From: Escherichia phage fp01
Sequence record: NC_048731.1
Reading direction: 5' to 3' (one strand)
DNA length: 64,000 nt
Part shown: positions 1 through 11,140 of the stretch, one piece after another
How the letters are laid out: every line of letters starts with the position of its first letter
Position numbering within the stretch: the first letter of the stretch is position 1
Translations under genes and position numbers: made by a program
The notes under the pieces: model-generated
The model's database searches: none
Seen by the model: only the letters and a program-made list of their open reading frames with translations
What the model was told of the DNA's origin: nothing

Positions 1-158
1 ATGCAGCACTGGGAAACTGGCTATAAGGATGGTGTTGAATCCTGTGCTACTATGCTAGAAGTTATTGCTAATACCTTAATGGAGAAAGGCAATAAAGAAT
101 TAGCTGAGCTATTAGACAGTATTGGGCAAAATTTCAGAGAACAGGTGAAAAATGCGTA
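1..158 (+). CDS. C-terminal fragment of an ORF truncated by the window edge (hypothetical protein)
   Basis: Open frame 1 runs from window start to TAG at 156-158, overlapping the next start; no recognisable motifs. Confidence 0.3.
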
Positions 159-988
159 GATTAATTATTATTAGCGGTGCGGGTTTGAGTGTTGAAAGTG
201 GTGTACGAGCTTTTCGTACTGATACTGCTAGTGGTAAAGCATTGTGGGATGATTATGATCTAGAAGAAGTATGTAATATTCATGCCTTTCGTGGTAACTT
301 CTATCATAAAACCCATATGTTTTACAACAAGCGTCGTGAAGAGCTAAAAACTGTTGAACCCAATCTTGCGCATTTGCGTATTGGTGAATGGTATAAACAA
401 TATCCAGGTCAGGTAGTAAACTTGACTACCAACGTTGATGACCTTATTGAGCGTGCTGGCGTTCCAAATAGTGACATTCTGCACATTCACGGATATTTAA
501 AAGAGGTTGTTGTAGCTGATAGCTACAATAGTAGCAATAAACGGATTATTGATGTAGGATACAATTCTATTGATCCAGATGATTATAAATGGGTTAAACC
601 TAATGTAATCTTCTTTGGGGAGCATGCTCCAGCGTATGCAGAAATGTACAATGTTTTTGATGGTATTACCAGTCAAGATATGATCATTGTGGTTGGTTGC
701 TCTAACCAAGTAATTAACTTCTACTGGGAATTATTTCCTGTTCTTAATTTGAATGCTGCCAAACTAATGGTAGTTAACTACTATGATAGTGCCCTCGCAG
801 CGGAACCGGGCTATCAAGGTATGACTCGTAGTGAGATGTACCAACTGGAAGAACGTGGTATCCCTTACTGGAGTAAAGGTGCGGTAGATGCTTTTAGTGA
901 CCCTGATTTTATTGCTCGTGTAGAAGCTCATTTAGAGGGTAGACCTTATGTGTCGAGAAGCAAGGGAAACAGATATGTCCATAGTTAA
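152..988 (+). CDS. SIR2-family (sirtuin-like) NAD-dependent protein, zinc-ribbon-less
   Basis: Sirtuin core motifs in order: GAGLSVESGVRAFR, TTNVDDLIERAG, HIHG, VIFFGE, IIVVGCS; no CxxC...CxxC zinc module between HG and FGE. Confidence 0.6.
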   Translation: MRRLIIISGAGLSVESGVRAFRTDTASGKALWDDYDLEEVCNIHAFRGNFYHKTHMFYNKRREELKTVEPNLAHLRIGEWYKQYPGQVVNLTTNVDDLIERAGVPNSDILHIHGYLKEVVVADSYNSSNKRIIDVGYNSIDPDDYKWVKPNVIFFGEHAPAYAEMYNVFDGITSQDMIIVVGCSNQVINFYWELFPVLNLNAAKLMVVNYYDSALAAEPGYQGMTRSEMYQLEERGIPYWSKGAVDAFSDPDFIARVEAHLEGRPYVSRSKGNRYVHS

Positions 989-1157
989 ACCTGTGTATAC
1001 ACATCCTGATGATATATTTGTATGGGCGGACGGTAGTTGGTGCTATCGCTGTGAGCTGTGGGAAATGGATTATAAATCCGATGACTATGGTGTTATATAT
1101 GTTGATACGGTTGAGTATGATACGTTCTTAGAAAGGAACAAAAATGGAAATAAGTAA
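975..1157 (+). CDS. hypothetical small protein
   Basis: Short ORF bridging SIR2 and HAD genes; start moved to internal ATG (MSIVKPVY) to reduce overlap; no motifs. Confidence 0.25.
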   Translation: MSIVKPVYTHPDDIFVWADGSWCYRCELWEMDYKSDDYGVIYVDTVEYDTFLERNKNGNK

Positions 1158-1650
1158 TACTCCAATTATTTTTCTAGACATTGATGGGGTGCTCAATTCG
1201 AGCATCTCCCACCATCATGCACCTGATAATGAAAAGATTTTCTTTGGAAGTGACTGGGTTTTCAAACCCCTTCTCAAGGCTTTTCAGGATTTTATTCGTC
1301 CTTCTCCGATAATGATTGTTGGAGTATCCTCATGGTTCTCTGTCAGGAATGAGATGGAGAACGTTCAGATTATGACCGGATTAGGTCTTATCGATCGTTT
1401 TCTTGGTACAACGGATTTTACTGGGGGTGGATTATCTAGAGGTAATTCTGTTCTTCGTTTCGTTGAAAAGCATAAGCTCAAACATTGGTGTGTGCTTGAT
1501 GATGCTGGTGCTATGATGTATCAGTATCCAACGGTTATAGTCAACGGTAGGACTGGGATAAATCTTCAAGATTTAAAAGCTGTTAGCTATATGCTAGAAT
1601 TTAGCCCAGATCTTGAAATGTGTAAATCCTTACAACAATTTAAGGTGTAA
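1144..1650 (+). CDS. HAD-superfamily phosphatase (nucleotidase-like)
   Basis: HAD motif I FLDIDGVLN near N-terminus, motif II-like IVGVSS, motif IV-like VLDDAG; 168 aa. Confidence 0.5.
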   Translation: MEISNTPIIFLDIDGVLNSSISHHHAPDNEKIFFGSDWVFKPLLKAFQDFIRPSPIMIVGVSSWFSVRNEMENVQIMTGLGLIDRFLGTTDFTGGGLSRGNSVLRFVEKHKLKHWCVLDDAGAMMYQYPTVIVNGRTGINLQDLKAVSYMLEFSPDLEMCKSLQQFKV

Positions 1651-1652
1651 AT

Positions 1653-2081
1653 ATGTTCAATAATGTATTCTCTAAAGAAGCTAACCCAATTTTGGTTAAC
1701 TTTTGGCGTACCCTCCCGGCTAGCCTGTATAATGAGGCTATTAACTCTTTGAAAATATGGTGTGAGAATAACGAAATCTCCTTTGCTTTTAAAGATGATA
1801 TTGATGAGGCCCCTTGTATTGGTTTAATTGTTCAGGTAGAGGAGGGTCTTGAAGAGATTGTCGGCTGGAAAGAGTTAGATGAAATGGGCTTAGTTTTTGC
1901 ATTAAACTATAAGCTGTTTATGCCTGCTAAGCATCGCCTCGTTGTTAACTATAAAACTAGTGAATCTCCTGGTTTTCAGGTTAATGAACGTTATGGTTGG
2001 TCTTACTCACCGGAAGAAGTAAATGAGGGGATTCAGAAACTTCGACGTTTCGGGTATATGATCCCAGGTTTAACTGCTTAA
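1653..2081 (+). CDS. hypothetical protein, paralog A of a tandem pair
   Basis: Shares DDxPCIG...W.EL..MGL..ALN..LF.P...GxxPGL pattern with the adjacent ORF. Confidence 0.5.
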   Translation: MFNNVFSKEANPILVNFWRTLPASLYNEAINSLKIWCENNEISFAFKDDIDEAPCIGLIVQVEEGLEEIVGWKELDEMGLVFALNYKLFMPAKHRLVVNYKTSESPGFQVNERYGWSYSPEEVNEGIQKLRRFGYMIPGLTA

Positions 2082-2090
2082 GGAGGCAAA

Positions 2091-2483
2091 ATGGAACAAG
2101 TATATTGGCGTCAGATTGACCCTAGTTTGGTAAAGCGTGCGGAAAAGCTGCTACAACGTTGGTTGGGAGTAAGACAAGCCTCCTTCACTTTTCCGGAGCA
2201 GCAAACGGATGATCCCTGCATTGGCGTTTTCCTGTCTGGGTATGCCGGGGAATGGGAGATGGACTGGAATGAATTGTCCGCTATGGGTTTAATTGTTGCC
2301 CTAAATTTCTCTTTGTTCCATCCACGTGGTTTTGCCATATGTCGTGTGCCGGATGATGGCTGTTCGCCACATCTTTTACAGGTGGAAGACGATATTTGGG
2401 AGTACACTCCAGGTATTCTCAAAGAAGCTAAAGAACAGTTAAACAGTGTTGGGATCTATGTTCCGGGATTAAATGATGAATAA
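2091..2483 (+). CDS. hypothetical protein, paralog B of a tandem pair
   Basis: RBS GGAGG upstream; same conserved pattern as 1653-2081. Confidence 0.5.
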   Translation: MEQVYWRQIDPSLVKRAEKLLQRWLGVRQASFTFPEQQTDDPCIGVFLSGYAGEWEMDWNELSAMGLIVALNFSLFHPRGFAICRVPDDGCSPHLLQVEDDIWEYTPGILKEAKEQLNSVGIYVPGLNDE

Positions 2484-2667
2484 AGAATATTGGGTATGTT
2501 ATGGTAAAATTAAAAAGTGGAATAAGGGTCAACTTTCAGCTAAGCAAGTAAAATTTATGGCAAGATATTTGACTGATCCCACTTTCGATATTAAAAAGTT
2601 AAGTAGCTCAAACCGCGCTATTATACTTAAATTTGCTAGTACTATTCGTGGTCTTTTTTATGATTAA
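2473..2667 (+). CDS. hypothetical small basic protein
   Basis: 64-aa ORF overlapping the previous stop, followed directly by a hairpin terminator. Confidence 0.3.
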   Translation: MMNKEYWVCYGKIKKWNKGQLSAKQVKFMARYLTDPTFDIKKLSSSNRAIILKFASTIRGLFYD

Positions 2668-2672
2668 TCCGT

Positions 2673-2702
2673 ATAACCGAGTCATTTTGACTCGGTTTTC
2701 TC
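2673..2702 (+). terminator. rho-independent terminator
   Basis: Stem ataaccgagtc / gactcggtt with loop attttga, then TTTTC. Confidence 0.6.
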
Positions 2703-2734
2703 TATGCTCAAAGACACTGATAGCACCTTTGGGA

Positions 2735-2780
2735 AAAATTTACTTGCATGATGCCCAAAATCTTGATATAATATTTATAT
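2735..2780 (+). promoter_or_regulatory. T5-type early promoter (sigma70)
   Basis: AAAAATTT UP-like tract, -35 TTGCAT (2744-2749), 17-nt spacer, -10 TATAAT (2767-2772). Confidence 0.6.
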
Positions 2781-3271
2781 TGAATTGAGAGACATTAGTA
2801 AAAATTGATTTTGCTAATTTTTCTTGTTTACAATCCGCGATACGGAACAGTTAGGCTGCCCCATTAAGGGTTGTTTTAACTGTTACGTGTTAGTTTTTAA
2901 ACAAATAGTTAATAGAATACTTAGCGATCTGCGTCCCATAGGAACCCTGGTAAGGCCTCGAAGCAACCTAGTATGAGGTGGTTGTGAAGTGAGATGGGAG
3001 GAGTGAAAAACTACCGAGACGTGATTCTGTAAGTTATATTGCATCTAGTATGAGCTAGTACATGAAGCATTAGGTGAGCAAATCTGGCTTAGCGGCCATC
3101 CTCAAGGATTTGTGCGGTATAATGAGGCAGCAGCGCAGCGTGAAAGTGGAAGTTGCCACCCCACTTCAGTATTTGCGATTAATTGTTGAGAAATTGACAG
3201 TAACAGTTGTTCTATTCTTTCTGAATAGTCCTAAAGAAAACTTATTTCATTTCCAACACAGGAGTATTGTT

Positions 3272-6061
3272 GTGTTCTCAATCCTACAAGGTCATGCAGG
3301 ATTTCATCGCGATTTAGCCACTGGCATTTGGCGAGAAGTTAAAGCAGAAGACTATCTTTTTGCTAAAAGATTTTCCTCAAAGCATCCTGAAGGTAAACCA
3401 GCTTCAATGCCCTTCAAGTTTGATGTAATTGATGAAATTGATCCTCAAACCCTAGTAGAAATGCTCCCCCTTATGAGACGTTTAACGTCTGACCCTCATA
3501 TCGTTGCGGTACGAGGACGATGTCTTGCACCCAAAAATAATGTGCGACGTAAGAAGGGCAACTTTAATGTATCTAACCCAAGTCATATAATTGCAATGGA
3601 CGTGGATGGTATTGTAGATACAGGTGGTTGTAACAAGTTTGATCTTGTTGGCATGGCTCGACATATTATTAGGATGTTAAATAGTATTAGTGAGGATATG
3701 TTTCCTCTTGATGCAGGGTTTATTGCTCATGCATCGTCTTCGGCTGGGCTAAAACCAGGTATCCGAATGCACTTAATACTAGAATCTAATGTTAAAGTAA
3801 CTCAGGGTCAAATCAAATTCTTATTTACATCTATCAACGAAAGTAGTAGACAAAAGTATGGCTTTGATATTGCCGACTTAGCTTATTACTCTTCCGTACA
3901 GCTCCATTATTTTGCAGATCCGTTGTTTACCGATGGTATAGTAGATCCGTTTAAAGCGGAGGGTGCTTCACGTCTGGTATTTGTTAAGGGTTCTAAAGTA
4001 AATTTACCCAATAATCTGGTTGACTATGAAACAACTAGAGGTGAGTTTAAAGAAGAGTTCTACTCTTTACTCGACCAAATTAAGGGTAAAAAAGCTGCCT
4101 CTGATAAAGTAGAAGAAACTATCAGCGAACTAGAAGAAGCTGAGGATGGAGTGTATCTACGTATTATTCCTAAACTCTATCACAGGGCTTTGGAGGATGG
4201 TGTTGATTTTGCATGGTTAGAAAAAGAAATCCGTCCAGCCTTATCAGAATATATTGCAACTAAAGATAATAGTCGTAATATTCAAGACTACTTTAATAAT
4301 GGTCGTAAACAGGCTCTAAAAGCGTTTGTTAATAATTCTAAACGTGATATACCGGATGTTTTAAAAGGTATTCCACTTAAAAAGCTAGAAACTAACTCTT
4401 TAGAGACTGATAACTTCTTGAAATTAAATACTGTACCACCAGAAGGTTATATGACTTTTGTAAAAGCAAGTTTAGGTACAGGTAAAACTACAGCGGTTGT
4501 GCGTTGGTTAGATTCAGGAGTTATTAAAGGTAATTTCTTAGCAATTACCAATACTCGAGCACTGGTATCTTCAAATGCTAAGAAATTTAGTGCAGGACAA
4601 TATGATAAGTCTGTAGATATGCTTAATTTTAAGCGTGGTGCTATTGACCGTATGTCCACAACTATTCACTCTTTGCATAAGTTCAAGAGTTTTATTGGTC
4701 AAATCGATGCAATCTTTATCGATGAATGTGATGCTGTAATGAATGACCTATTGTTCGCCCCTGTTGTTAAACAACGTCGTGAATGTATTCAGGTTCTTCG
4801 GGATATTCTTGCAACTGCAAAAATCATTATATTATCTGATGGTGATATTAGTGCAGAAACAATTGAAGCATATGGTTCTTTGATTGAGTTTGATAAACCG
4901 GTTGCATTTTATAATCATCACCGTAAAATGCTGTCAAAAGCTCATGCTTACGAGTTCCCTGACGAATCCAGTATTTGGGTTGCACTTCAGACTTCTCTAG
5001 AGATGGGTGAGAAATCTATTCTGGTATCTGACTGTGGGCCGGATGAACTGAATGAGAAGGGCATGGCGTTGCGTCGTAATACGGGTGCATTAGTTAAGGA
5101 AATCCACTCAAACTCTACGTCTGATGTAGATATTAGACGTATTCTGGATTACACAACTAATGAGCTAATTGACCAACAAATTGATTGCTTATTATGTAGT
5201 CCATCCGTAACGAGTGGTGTTGACTTTAACTATTTTGATAACGTATTCGTTATCACTAGAACTAGTAACCAAGCGCCAAACATGCGTTTCCAAGCAATCA
5301 GGCGCGACCGTGGTGCTCAGAACATTTATTATTTTATTGATAAATCTACGAGTGGATTCTCCGCAGGTTCTGAGCAATATAACATTGATGAAGGTTGGCT
5401 GGAGTTAGCACAGCAATTATACGCACGTCGAAGAGAGCTGGAATCTAGGAACTATACTAGTACTTTACGTTATTATTTGCTTGATCAAGGTGCAACTATT
5501 GATATTTTCAGTGAAAGCTGGGGAACTATCGAAGGTGCAGGAAAAGAGTATACGGAAGAGCGAATCAAAGCTATATTGTATTCAACTCCTGATTATTGTG
5601 CTCCACGTCATGCAGATGCGTATGAAGCTAAACTACTTCTTGTTCGCTATTATCATCTTGAATCTATTAAAGATGTAACAGTTGAGCATGTTGAACAATA
5701 TATCAAGGATAAACCGAATGATCGAGCAGCATTCTTCCATAAAATGCACGAGATGTTCTGGGAAGATATTAAGAAGTGTTCAAATGTCACTATCAAACCA
5801 TTCATAGAAGCTCTGAAAGGTAAGAAGAAAGATTTCTTCCTTAAAACAGGTCAGAGTGCTAACCCAAAATATGCCAGAATGTATCTTGGTATGATGGGTA
5901 TTGGTAAGGATATGAACACGGAGAATATTGTAGACTGGTACAGAACTTATTGTAAAATCGAGTGTATGCCAATCCCGTATAAGTTTATGACTGATGAGGA
6001 GAAACATATGCATGATGAAGCAATGGCAGAGCTAGGTGCTAGAAATGACAGTGAAGAATAA
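3272..6061 (+). CDS. large P-loop NTPase, possible replication-initiation or origin-binding helicase-like protein
   Basis: Walker A SLGTGKTT and Walker B IFIDECD; frame open from 3074 but probable start is in-frame GTG at 3272 behind RBS AGGAG; N-terminal extension looks non-coding. Confidence 0.5.
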   Translation: MFSILQGHAGFHRDLATGIWREVKAEDYLFAKRFSSKHPEGKPASMPFKFDVIDEIDPQTLVEMLPLMRRLTSDPHIVAVRGRCLAPKNNVRRKKGNFNVSNPSHIIAMDVDGIVDTGGCNKFDLVGMARHIIRMLNSISEDMFPLDAGFIAHASSSAGLKPGIRMHLILESNVKVTQGQIKFLFTSINESSRQKYGFDIADLAYYSSVQLHYFADPLFTDGIVDPFKAEGASRLVFVKGSKVNLPNNLVDYETTRGEFKEEFYSLLDQIKGKKAASDKVEETISELEEAEDGVYLRIIPKLYHRALEDGVDFAWLEKEIRPALSEYIATKDNSRNIQDYFNNGRKQALKAFVNNSKRDIPDVLKGIPLKKLETNSLETDNFLKLNTVPPEGYMTFVKASLGTGKTTAVVRWLDSGVIKGNFLAITNTRALVSSNAKKFSAGQYDKSVDMLNFKRGAIDRMSTTIHSLHKFKSFIGQIDAIFIDECDAVMNDLLFAPVVKQRRECIQVLRDILATAKIIILSDGDISAETIEAYGSLIEFDKPVAFYNHHRKMLSKAHAYEFPDESSIWVALQTSLEMGEKSILVSDCGPDELNEKGMALRRNTGALVKEIHSNSTSDVDIRRILDYTTNELIDQQIDCLLCSPSVTSGVDFNYFDNVFVITRTSNQAPNMRFQAIRRDRGAQNIYYFIDKSTSGFSAGSEQYNIDEGWLELAQQLYARRRELESRNYTSTLRYYLLDQGATIDIFSESWGTIEGAGKEYTEERIKAILYSTPDYCAPRHADAYEAKLLLVRYYHLESIKDVTVEHVEQYIKDKPNDRAAFFHKMHEMFWEDIKKCSNVTIKPFIEALKGKKKDFFLKTGQSANPKYARMYLGMMGIGKDMNTENIVDWYRTYCKIECMPIPYKFMTDEEKHMHDEAMAELGARNDSEE

Positions 6062-8161: not shown

Positions 8162-8827
8162 GTGAAAAAGTTAACAGCAAAGCAAATAAATAAAGAATTA
8201 GAGCCGCGAGGTTTTAGTATAGTAAGTGAGTGGATTAATATAAGGACACCCGCCATATTTAAGTGCTCAAAAGGTCACCAATGGAGGGCATACCTAAACA
8301 ACATAAGAAAAGGTAGTGGTTGTCCACACTGTAGTAATAAAGCTAAGCTTACTATAGAGCAAATAAATCAACAATTAGCCAATAGAGGTATAAAACTTGT
8401 ATCCACGTATATCAATGCCCATAGTCAAGCAGTATTCGAGTGCGAAGAAGGACATAGGTGGACTAGTAGCGTGGATAAGATTAAAAATGCAGGAAGATCT
8501 TGTCCTATCTGTATAGCTACAAGCTATTTGTATATATTTTATAGCCAGCAGCTTGGAACAAAAATAGGAACATCTAAAAGTCCAGAGAGAAGACTTTTAG
8601 AGATCAAAAAAGATTCTAATCTAGAGGACTTGAGTGCATATGGAGTATACTCTTGTGAGGGGTCAGCATATAATCTAGAAAATAAAGCACATAGATTCTT
8701 TAGTGCTACACAGATATTTACAGAATCAATATTTGACGGTTCTACTGAGTTTTTCAATATTCAACCAGAGGAGGCAGAGGAATATCTCCTAAGTCAGGGA
8801 GCAATAAAATGTCAGGAGATAATGTAA
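8162..8827 (+). CDS. putative homing-endonuclease-like protein (duplicated Cys4 zinc ribbons plus GIY-YIG/T5orf172-like segment)
   Basis: Two repeated modules C-x-x-GH-x-W...C-P-x-C; downstream YLYIFYSQ...TKIGTS resembles the GIY-YIG/T5orf172 nuclease core; AT-rich codon usage unlike flanking genes; GTG start. Confidence 0.4.
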   Translation: MKKLTAKQINKELEPRGFSIVSEWINIRTPAIFKCSKGHQWRAYLNNIRKGSGCPHCSNKAKLTIEQINQQLANRGIKLVSTYINAHSQAVFECEEGHRWTSSVDKIKNAGRSCPICIATSYLYIFYSQQLGTKIGTSKSPERRLLEIKKDSNLEDLSAYGVYSCEGSAYNLENKAHRFFSATQIFTESIFDGSTEFFNIQPEEAEEYLLSQGAIKCQEIM

Positions 8828-9186: not shown

Positions 9187-10158
9187 ATGACTAATGTAAA
9201 AGACTTTATTAAACGTTGTCAAGAAGCATATTACCAGGGAATGTCTTTAATCTCTGACGAAGAATATGATCGTCTGATTAAAAGATTTCCGTTAGAAGAA
9301 GAGATCGGGCCTAAGGGTGATATTCCACATCTGTATCGTATGTATTCTTTACAGAAAGTTTATTATAATCGTGGAGATAAACCCCCATTTAACCCGTTAG
9401 GTCAGGTAGAAACTGATAAGTTAGATGGTTGTGCGATTTCTCTGTTATATATTAATGGCGAATTTGTTCAAGCACTAACTCGTGGCAATGGTATTCTAGG
9501 GAATGATGTCACAAGCAACGTAAGATTGCTGAACATCCCCAAAAAGATTTCCCAAAAAGTACCTACTCAAATCACTGGTGAAGTTCTAATTACAAAAGAA
9601 GTAGAAAATAAACGTAACTTTGCCTCTGGTGCTATTAACCTCAAAGATAGCGATGATTTCGTACAACGTATCGGAGAAGGTGGTTTAATCTTCGTTGCAT
9701 ATGGTATCCAGTGTTCTGCTGAATCTGTAGGTATTACAGAAACGTATTTAAAAGATATGCTTTGGCTAGAGAATGAGAACTTCTTAACAGTTGTTAATGT
9801 GCGTTCCTTCTTTAAATGGATTCCGACGGATGGTAAAGTTGTTCGTATTAATGACAACAACAAATTCTTCCGAGAAGGCTGGACTAATAAATTCCCTCGT
9901 GGAGCATTCGCTATTAAAGAGGATGAAGAAGGCGAGATTACAACTCTTACTAAAGTTGAATGGCAGGTAGGGGCTTCTGGTAAAGTAACTCCAGTTGGTT
10001 ATTTCGAACCGGTAATTATTGATGATGCTACAATTGTTAAGGCGACTCTTAATAACGTTGATTATATTAACTCTCTTGATCTAGAGATCGGTTGCCAGAT
10101 TCGAGTGATTCGTGCCGGTGGTGTAATCCCGTGCATAGTAGAGCGAGTATACGATTAA
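9187..10158 (+). CDS. ligA: NAD-dependent DNA ligase, N-terminal subunit (domain Ia, adenylation, OB fold)
   Basis: Domain Ia-like SDEEYDRLIKRF, adenylation lysine motif KLDGCA, TRGNG motif; ends before the Zn-finger region. Confidence 0.8.
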   Translation: MTNVKDFIKRCQEAYYQGMSLISDEEYDRLIKRFPLEEEIGPKGDIPHLYRMYSLQKVYYNRGDKPPFNPLGQVETDKLDGCAISLLYINGEFVQALTRGNGILGNDVTSNVRLLNIPKKISQKVPTQITGEVLITKEVENKRNFASGAINLKDSDDFVQRIGEGGLIFVAYGIQCSAESVGITETYLKDMLWLENENFLTVVNVRSFFKWIPTDGKVVRINDNNKFFREGWTNKFPRGAFAIKEDEEGEITTLTKVEWQVGASGKVTPVGYFEPVIIDDATIVKATLNNVDYINSLDLEIGCQIRVIRAGGVIPCIVERVYD

Positions 10159-10357: not shown

Positions 10358-11140
10358 TTGATGAAAATCGAAATTCCAACACAATGTCCCTCTTGTGGTT
10401 CTAAGCTAGATCTTGTCAACGGACAATTATTCTGTCGGAATAAGTCCAACTGTCCAGCGCAATCAAGTAAGTTAATTGAGAACTTCTGTACAAAAATGAA
10501 GTTAAAGGGCTTTGGCCCAAAAACTATTGAGAAGCTGGAGCTGACGAAGATTTCAGAACTATTTTACCTAACCGAAGAAGATTTGGTTAGAGCCGTGGGT
10601 AGCAAGGTTGCCGCTAAGTTAATTAGCGAATTAAATACTAAAGTTCGCGGAGACATTGACTTTGGTTCAGTTCTCGGTTCTTTAGGAATCCCTCTAATAG
10701 GAGAGGTTGCAGCAAAGAAATTATCCCAAAATTGCACTAGCTTCCACGATGTGAAGGCTGACGGCAAGGCTGGAGAAAATTATAAAGCCTGGCTAAATTC
10801 CCCACAAGGCAGGGATGTTATCGAACTACCGTGGAAATTTTCAACCGGTATTAAGGGCACTAAAGCTAATATCATCATTACAGATGAATTAGTTGCCCAG
10901 CCAAATGGAATCGCGGTATGTATTACCGGATCTTTGCAAGATTTTGCAAATAGAACGGATGCAACAAACTATTTAGAAGGTCTAGGATATACGGTTAAGA
11001 AATCCGTTACCAAAGACGTCAAATACCTGATCTGTGAGGATGAATCAAAACGTTCTTCCTCATCTTATAAGAAAGCCGAAACGAATGGGATAGAAATCCT
11101 GTCGATTAAAGAACTATTGGAGAAAAATAATAATGTCTAA
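10358..11140 (+). CDS. ligB: NAD-dependent DNA ligase, C-terminal subunit (Zn finger, HhH, BRCT)
   Basis: Starts with Cys4 Zn finger CPSCGSKL...CRNKSNCPAQ, then Gly-rich HhH-like segments and BRCT-like C-terminus. Confidence 0.8.
   Translation: MMKIEIPTQCPSCGSKLDLVNGQLFCRNKSNCPAQSSKLIENFCTKMKLKGFGPKTIEKLELTKISELFYLTEEDLVRAVGSKVAAKLISELNTKVRGDIDFGSVLGSLGIPLIGEVAAKKLSQNCTSFHDVKADGKAGENYKAWLNSPQGRDVIELPWKFSTGIKGTKANIIITDELVAQPNGIAVCITGSLQDFANRTDATNYLEGLGYTVKKSVTKDVKYLICEDESKRSSSSYKKAETNGIEILSIKELLEKNNNV

Follow-up and report, generated by a model that had tools for sequence, protein, structure and literature searches.

What could a phage do with a sirtuin that lacks zinc-binding cysteines and whose gene is packed together with a phosphatase gene and a pair of paralogous small genes? 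We addressed this question in a stretch of 64,000 nucleotides from Escherichia phage fp01 (sequence record NC_048731.1), hereafter the window. An earlier note, made from the sequence alone, had placed a SIR2-family open reading frame (ORF), a HAD-type phosphatase and two related small ORFs at positions 152-2483, all of which were present there, and had taken the missing zinc ribbon as a sign of a nicotinamide adenine dinucleotide (NAD) hydrolase (NADase) or ADP-ribosyltransferase (ART) rather than a deacetylase. Its observations and domain calls were right, whereas the mechanistic inference from the missing zinc was unsupported. We identified the locus as the early accessory operon T5.102-T5.107 of a T5-like phage. 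The system is already known: its genes have been annotated in T5 since publication of the genome, the lack of a zinc site in phage sirtuins was reported in 2016, and in 2022 the sirtuin-HAD pairing was published together with a functional prediction (Iyer, Burroughs, Anantharaman and Aravind 2022, Viruses 14:1977). As predicted in that last work, the operon would most likely encode an NAD+-dependent RNA-end healing module, a reading by analogy that we favour tentatively, at somewhat under even confidence.

Nucleotide comparison of the first 6.2 kb of the window matched 529 phage records. Full-length identity was 95-97% for the best matches, and those records that were examined belonged to Tequintavirus, Demerecviridae (T5-like phages). 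DNA identity of the operon region to T5 and further Tequintavirus genomes was 92-96%, with conserved gene order; against T5 itself identity was 92% over the SIR2 gene and over T5.104-T5.107, in the same order and strand. The window genes are the homologs of T5.102 (Sir2, 152-988), T5.104 (975-1157), T5.105 (1144-1650), T5.106 (1653-2081) and T5.107 (2091-2483), followed by one more ORF at 2473-2667, all on the plus strand and either overlapping or at most 9 nucleotides apart. In the T5 record, the operon is bounded by two annotated elements, a promoter that follows nrdD and a terminator that precedes the replication-origin-binding gene.

The sirtuin (278 residues) matched the Pfam SIR2 family PF02146 with E=8e-25 (88 bits, gathering cut-off 24), and the motifs that had been read from its sequence, GAGLSVESG, NVDDL, HIHG, FFGE and VVGCS, were all found. 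In an alignment with 20 relatives, the NAD-binding motif GAG..S..SG..FR was invariant, as were G9-A10-G11, S16, G17, F21, R22, Y58, R61, R62, N94, D96, H113, F154, F155 and E157. Most of these residues persisted in members at 37-38% identity; H113 and N94 were also kept in distant members, and R61 was replaced by Leu in one jumbo-phage member. The protein has only two cysteines, C41 and C183, and none between HIHG and KPNV (H113 to K149), the stretch that aligns with the C...CxCC of E. coli CobB. This region was cysteine-free in 24 relatives as well, and the small domain of the distant rV5-, Mydo-, KVP40-like and jumbo-phage members likewise had no zinc cysteines. The reported absence of the two cysteine pairs of the structural zinc site was thus borne out by alignment with CobB.

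Both sequence and fold placed the protein closest to deacylases. The nearest solved proteins by sequence were E. coli CobB (4e-18), archaeal Sir2Af1/Af2, SIRT5 and Sir2Tm. A structure model built from 20 homologs had a mean predicted local distance difference test score (pLDDT) of 86.7, and a fold search with it returned CobB first, with a template modelling (TM) score of 0.83 normalised to CobB length, followed by Sir2Af1, Sir2Tm and SIRT5. In place of the zinc ribbon the model has strands at residues 114-122 and 130-134, predicted with pLDDT 80-94, and its small domain seems to be kept without a metal. The fp01 sirtuin shares with CobB and SIRT5 the Rossmann plus small-domain architecture, the catalytic His (H113), the Asn/Asp pair (N94/D96) and the Tyr/Arg pair (Y58/R61), but it is only about 25% identical to them, has no zinc cysteines, is phage-encoded and lies in another gene context. 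Among NCBIfam models only deacylase models matched (NF040867, NF001753 and related), far under their curated cut-offs (91 vs 320 bits for CobB, and 101 vs 243 bits). A housekeeping CobB ortholog with an intact zinc site was ruled out by these scores, far under the equivalog cut-offs, and by the absent zinc site. Judged from sequence and model, the protein is a phage-specific, zinc-free branch of the CobB/SIRT5-like sirtuins that appears to keep all residues needed for NAD+ chemistry, and it looks catalytically competent.

Does the missing zinc ribbon indicate a NADase or ADP-ribosyltransferase, used for host takeover or against NAD-depleting or ADP-ribose-signalling immunity? Defence-type SIR2 NADases have no zinc ribbon, and sirtuins can ADP-ribosylate. 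The defence SIR2 proteins (ThsA, DSR1/2, SIR2-HerA and pAgo-associated) belong to the same superfamily as the fp01 sirtuin, but no PADLOC defence-SIR2 model matched it at E<=0.1 and no defence-type SIR2 was among the top 50 solved-structure fold matches of its model, so that a defence-type SIR2 NADase was ruled out. Unlike them, the fp01 sirtuin keeps the small domain and the deacylase motifs. The ADP-ribosylating SirTM sirtuins have no catalytic His (review) and are recognised by this absence together with an adjacent Macro gene, whereas H113 is present and invariant here and neither Pfam nor phrog matches revealed a Macro domain in the operon ORFs. Absence of zinc therefore does not indicate a NADase, because fold and sequence are closest to deacylases, the His and the Tyr/Arg pair are kept, the small domain is kept and no defence model matches. 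The structure prediction that the earlier note had called for to choose between active-site types returned deacylase folds and a predicted small domain, not a NADase-like protein. We consider a NADase or ADP-ribosyltransferase very improbable.

An ordinary NAD+-dependent lysine deacylase would fit the same data. The protein would then be CobB-like, possibly with a preference for succinyl or other acidic acyl groups, and would reset acylation of host or phage proteins early in infection, while HAD and the DUF7415 paralogs would share no pathway with it. Besides the sequence and fold matches given above, the acyl pocket speaks for this: FYNKRR of fp01 aligns with FYNARR of CobB, Y58/R61 correspond exactly to CobB Y92/R95, and C41 and V95 align with A76 and I131, acyl-pocket positions altered in engineered CobB variants. 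CobB Y92/R95, the class III Tyr/Arg pair, bind acidic acyl groups. The catalytic His is present, unlike in SirTM, and zinc in sirtuins is structural, not catalytic (review). A similar proposal has already been made for Vibrio phages: Skliros et al. 2016 described zinc-free Sir2/CobB proteins of phages phiSt2, phiGrn1 and KVP40, listed T5 as a homolog and proposed deacetylation of acetyl-CoA synthetase; a HAD or DUF7415 neighbour was not described. These proteins belong to the same clade, and the member from the KVP40-like (Schizotequatrovirus) phage PG216 is 38% identical to that of fp01. On the other side stand the score far under the CobB equivalog cut-off, the absent zinc site, the lack of a known substrate, and the recurring operon link that joins sirtuins of other phage groups to genes for RNA ligase, cREC and kinase, for which deacylation offers no obvious explanation. 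We regard a plain deacylase as a serious possibility, if a somewhat unlikely one.

That recurring link emerged from the gene neighbourhoods. Sirtuin matches were found in 985 of 50,697 phage records (about 2%), with relatives at 50-77% identity in T5-like, Mydovirus, rV5-like and roughly 150-kb enterobacterial phages, and at 35-40% identity in KVP40-like Vibrio phages and jumbo phages. In Raoultella phage Ro1 the order was Rnl1 RNA ligase, cREC, AAA_33 kinase, SIR2 and ATP-dependent DNA ligase; in the rV5-like phage FV3, Rnl1, a 116-residue protein (cREC) and SIR2 were closely packed on one strand. The fp01 sirtuin was 58-65% identical to the FV3 and Ro1 proteins. Because of the Rnl1, cREC and kinase neighbours in Ro1 and FV3, context favours RNA repair for the sirtuin clade. 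In fp01, the HAD_SAK_2 gene starts 156 bp downstream of SIR2 in the same operon, and the pair persists in Erwinia phage KEY and contig L006 (distant T5-like), where the order is reversed to HAD, small ORF, SIR2. These neighbourhoods are types 2 and 3 of Iyer et al. 2022, who predicted that phage sirtuins remove RNA 2′-phosphates like KptA and took the T5-like Escherichia phage SP15 as the type of the sirtuin plus SAK-HAD arrangement (type 3). Both rV5/Mydo-type homology and the SAK-type HAD neighbour place the fp01 sirtuin in their RNA-repair clade; it shares the clade and HAD neighbourhood with nothing material differing, and SP15 carries close homologs of the fp01 HAD and DUF7415 proteins. 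The function given there is a prediction, and the DUF7415 pair and small ORFs were not mentioned.

The HAD phosphatase (1144-1650, 168 residues, T5.105 homolog) adds to this picture. It matched PF18143 HAD_SAK_2 with E=7e-20 (72 bits, cut-off 27.5), a family defined on RNA-repair 'Swiss army knife' proteins. HAD motifs I-IV, namely FLDIDGVLN (D12/D14), S62/S63, R99 and D119/D120, were invariant in 14 homologs, which together with the PF18143 match confirmed the HAD phosphatase that had been read from DIDGVL. Its homologs were found in 471 phage records, nearly all T5-like. In Aeromonas phage AsFcp_2 a HAD homolog lay 650 bp upstream of rnlA. The RNA-repair Pfam family, the adjacency to SIR2 in KEY and L006 and the proximity to rnlA in AsFcp_2 are all sequence-level indications that the phosphatase may belong to RNA repair.

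How would a sirtuin act on RNA? KptA/Tpt1 uses NAD+ as the acceptor and works in two steps, via a C1″-linked intermediate and the ribose 2″-OH. It would be a functional analogue only: its fold is unrelated (ART superfamily), and the activity is demonstrated for KptA/Tpt1 but predicted for the phage sirtuin. In the proposed scheme, a host ribonuclease would cut tRNA or mRNA and leave an RNA 2′-phosphate, which would attack C1″ of NAD+ on the sirtuin in the KptA/Tpt1 fashion with release of nicotinamide. The ribose 2″-OH, activated by the conserved His, would then take the phosphate, giving a clean 2′-OH and ADP-ribose cyclic phosphate. The HAD phosphatase could afterwards take a terminal phosphate off the RNA end or off the ADP-ribose-phosphate by-product, the second of which would yield ADP-ribose. 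Both the substrate and every catalytic step are inferred, and the DUF7415 proteins and small ORFs stand outside the scheme. By analogy, lysine deacylation and the Tpt1/KptA reaction would comprise the same two steps, attack of a substrate oxygen on C1″ of NAD+ and attack of the ribose 2″-OH on the attached group. Since these steps are common, the retained His and the anion-binding Tyr/Arg pair, which the RNA scheme leads one to expect, fit both RNA and deacylase readings and do not discriminate between them.

Several points weigh against an RNA-end healing module. No sirtuin is known from experiment to act on RNA, and we found no experimental follow-up of the RNA-repair prediction of Iyer et al. 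2022 in the literature. Ordinary lysine deacylation would explain every conserved residue equally well, and the sirtuin and its family are acidic (isoelectric point, pI, 4.8-5.8), which is unusual for RNA-binding enzymes. No homolog of an RNA ligase, polynucleotide kinase or cREC was present in the 64-kb window, so an RNA-repair pathway in T5-like phages would depend on host enzymes. The SIR2-HAD pair is not obligate, as the numbers of phage records with each gene differ. More distant HAD_SAK_2 homologs in 45 viral contigs had mixed neighbours and no sirtuin within 10 kb; a general HAD_SAK_2-sirtuin linkage across viral contigs was not found outside T5-like phages. Finally, neither single-sequence nor profile search detected a solved-structure relative of the HAD protein, T4 polynucleotide kinase-phosphatase included.

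The closest HAD homologs outside T5-like phages (39-43% identity) came from Serratia phage ChuuTotoro and metagenomic contigs, and they may point to another substrate. In ChuuTotoro the HAD stop codon overlaps the start of a phosphoribosyl-pyrophosphate-synthetase-like (Adps-like) gene, which is followed by a Nampt-like (Namat-like) gene; in contig L008 a 99-residue ORF separates the HAD homolog from the Adps-like gene. The HAD-Adps-Namat stretches lie at 6001-9217 of L007, 21889-25105 of L071 (minus strand) and 6001-9519 of L008. Domain content and 37% identity to the ICP1 gene identified Adps and Namat as the NARP1 pair. A HAD gene directly upstream of Adps-Namat was found in 3 phage records only, and we did not find the HAD-NARP1 adjacency among the papers searched. 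In a NARP1-attached arrangement, the Macro-domain phosphatase Adpp converts ADP-ribose-1″-phosphate to ADP-ribose (Osterman et al. 2026, preprint); the main text of this preprint mentions no HAD. Adpp and the HAD homologs of ChuuTotoro and L008 occupy comparable places beside Adps-Namat, although their folds differ (Macro vs HAD). Because a homolog adjoins NARP1 genes whose attached Macro phosphatase makes ADP-ribose, the HAD protein may have an ADP-ribose phosphate, not RNA ends, as its substrate.

These strands could be joined into one reading, which we think rather doubtful as a whole. The sirtuin would be the first shown to act on nucleic acid, removing RNA 2′-phosphates with NAD+; HAD_SAK_2 would represent a second type of ADP-ribose-phosphate phosphatase, outside the Macro fold, which converts either the by-product or what RES-type phosphorolysis of NAD+ produces back to ADP-ribose, so that NAD+ can be rebuilt; and the DUF7415 proteins would assist this RNA/NAD module as accessory factors. 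The role given to HAD here is suggested by the few Vequintavirinae in which it lies directly upstream of Adps-Namat.

The NAD context of the phage bears again on the proposed NADase or ADP-ribosyltransferase. In its favour, a few phages have a HAD homolog joined to NARP1-like genes for NAD rebuilding, and some T5-like phages carry the NARP3 NAD-rebuilding pair, so that NAD supply matters to T5-like phages. On the other hand, a split NAD-dependent DNA ligase, composed of an adenylation-plus-OB gene and an HhH-plus-BRCT gene, lies 6.7 kb downstream of the operon, and an unregulated NADase is unlikely in a phage whose own ligase needs NAD+. Moreover, no homolog of NARP1 (Adps, Namat) was detected within the 64-kb window at E<=0.01, and knock-down of T5.102-T5.106 in T5 had no fitness effect on laboratory E. 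coli, although hosts carrying such defences are another case. Thus, of the NAD or ADP-ribose handling module that the earlier note proposed, the general idea stood, since it is published for T5-like phages as a predicted NAD-using sirtuin-HAD system, whereas the role against NAD-depleting immunity did not, given the missing NARP1 gene, the NAD-dependent ligase and the absent knock-down cost. The ligase genes, together with a T5orf172/MUG113-type endonuclease-like ORF about 360 nucleotides upstream of the first of them, lie at 8162-8827, 9187-10158 and 10358-11140 of the window.

We further studied the two small ORFs downstream of HAD, paralog a (1653-2081, 142 residues, T5.106 homolog) and paralog b (2091-2483, 130 residues, T5.107 homolog), which are both acidic. 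Pairwise BLASTP gave 32% identity over 124 residues (E=6e-20), and both belong to phrog_2502 and to Pfam DUF7415 (PF24187), with E-values of 5e-36 and 1e-31 (123 and 109 bits, cut-off 27), so the local duplication suggested earlier held. The PCIG and MGL..ALN..F.P cores were invariant in the family alignment. Paralog a gave a confident structure model, and a fold search with it returned no match among solved structures; such a predicted DUF7415 fold without a solved counterpart was not found in the papers searched. The family is small, as 1.84 billion clusters yielded 52 representatives, and none of the distant relatives among these 52 showed an informative fusion. Two Pfam stretches hinted at an internal duplication in DUF7415, which was rejected by hhalign (probability 13%). 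The names 'exonuclease' and 'tail tube' carried by some DUF7415 genes had no support from Pfam, NCBIfam or fold search.

The wider occurrence of DUF7415-like proteins raises the alternative that the operon is held together by synteny only. In this case the sirtuin would have a target of its own; HAD, as part of a nucleotide-metabolism region, would dephosphorylate nucleotides or metabolites; and the DUF7415 proteins would either be connected with anaerobic ribonucleotide reductase or interact with the host. The C-terminal half of paralog b resembles small phrog_3954 ORFs of T4-like phages, and in T4-like Klebsiella phages, Mineola among them, 77-residue ORFs resembling the DUF7415 C-terminal half separate nrdD from nrdG. 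The T5 operon itself is just downstream of nrdD, and in an Aeromonas phage a HAD homolog is flanked by td and nrdA.1. KEY and L006 keep HAD and SIR2 paired without DUF7415 genes, and only T5.107 behaved differently in the T5 knock-down described below. Set against this, HAD and SIR2 are still adjacent after rearrangement in the distant T5-like phages, and the operon genes are tightly packed or overlapping on one strand. Moreover, the 77-residue DUF7415-like ORF of AsFcp_2, about 1.8 kb downstream of the HAD homolog, begins at the final base of rnlA, which points to RNA repair. The 77-residue ORFs are located at 4980-5213 of L069 and 8296-8529 of L070. We hold separate roles to be unlikely; for DUF7415, its association with the sirtuin is one of adjacency, limited to T5-like phages.

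Is the operon needed by the phage? In a CRISPRi-ART screen in T5 (PMC11879866, supplementary file 16), T5.102-T5.106 were all called 'Not Fit', that is, knock-down carried no fitness cost, and T5.107 alone in the operon was 'Fit', marginally (p=0.02). That table also gives 'Not Fit' for the replication-origin-binding gene T5.108, which leaves the sensitivity of the T5 screen uncertain, and its calls need caution. Natural deletions were found as well. Phage DT57C has a deletion within the SIR2-HAD part of the operon, and the natural isolate Shigella phage SHSML-45 has neither SIR2, nor the 60-residue ORF, nor the first 63 HAD residues, its homology beginning at window position 1333 (L022, 10001 onward). 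Because of these deletions and the 'Not Fit' calls, the operon is accessory, with a probably conditional role.

The DT57C deletion also bears on how the HAD genes are named. Its gene annotated sir2 fuses SIR2 residues 169-233 to HAD residues 128-168, and this fusion was probably the seed of the label 'Sir2 (NAD-dependent deacetylase)' on HAD genes. HAD genes are so labelled because phrog_18062 covers the C-terminal half of HAD. Many records thus list 'Sir2 x2'; HAD as a second Sir2 gene was rejected, as phrog_18062 covers only that half and, weakly, SIR2 residues 169-216.

The sirtuin is well conserved and is carried by about 2% of sequenced phage genomes. If it were an RNA 2′-phosphotransferase, it would extend a much-studied family of enzymes to a class of substrate new to it and represent a phage counter-measure against RNA-cutting defences; if it were a deacylase, phages would be seen to edit the acylation of host proteins. 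T5 is amenable to genetics and can largely do without the operon in the laboratory, which makes experiments easy to set up.

Beyond the genes reported earlier, the operon contains a 60-residue acidic ORF, a 64-residue ORF and a terminator-like hairpin. The 60-residue ORF (975-1157, plus strand; phrog_5116) is 97% identical to T5.104, has a G.WCYR motif and overlaps each neighbour by 14 nucleotides. T5.103 and T5.104 are small paralogs with this common motif, of which fp01 keeps the T5.104 type only (window 964-975; L068 5244-5602), and the absence of the T5.103 paralog accounts for an indel of about 150-170 nucleotides in many database matches. In the distant contig L006, a similar ORF of 61 residues comes after SIR2. 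The fp01 sirtuin also has a slightly longer C-terminal tail than that of T5. Upstream, a 52-residue ORF (1-159, plus strand; phrog_5827) has a stop that overlaps the SIR2 start by 8 nucleotides, and it is in the same transcription unit in T5-like phages.

At the other end, fp01 has an extra 64-residue basic ORF before the terminator (2473-2667, plus strand; pI 10; phrog_29527), carried by an insertion of about 190 nucleotides at 2482-2672 relative to T5 and SHSML-45. The hairpin with its T-run follows at 2675-2697 (plus strand); it was the sole one found in positions 1-3300, and the T5 terminator is annotated at the matching place. The region from about 2700 to the true start of the replication-origin-binding gene is intergenic, with a T5 promoter annotated at the matching place. 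The mechanical ORF call for that gene (3074-6061) gives 995 residues from a GTG, compared with 928-955 residues in the annotated relatives, and the true start is probably further downstream than the GTG at 3074. Finally, T5-like sequences with 90-98% identity are filed under Listeria phage LM 4-14-1, several 'Campylobacter phage' names and partial Enterococcus faecalis proteins, which look like mislabelled or contaminated entries.

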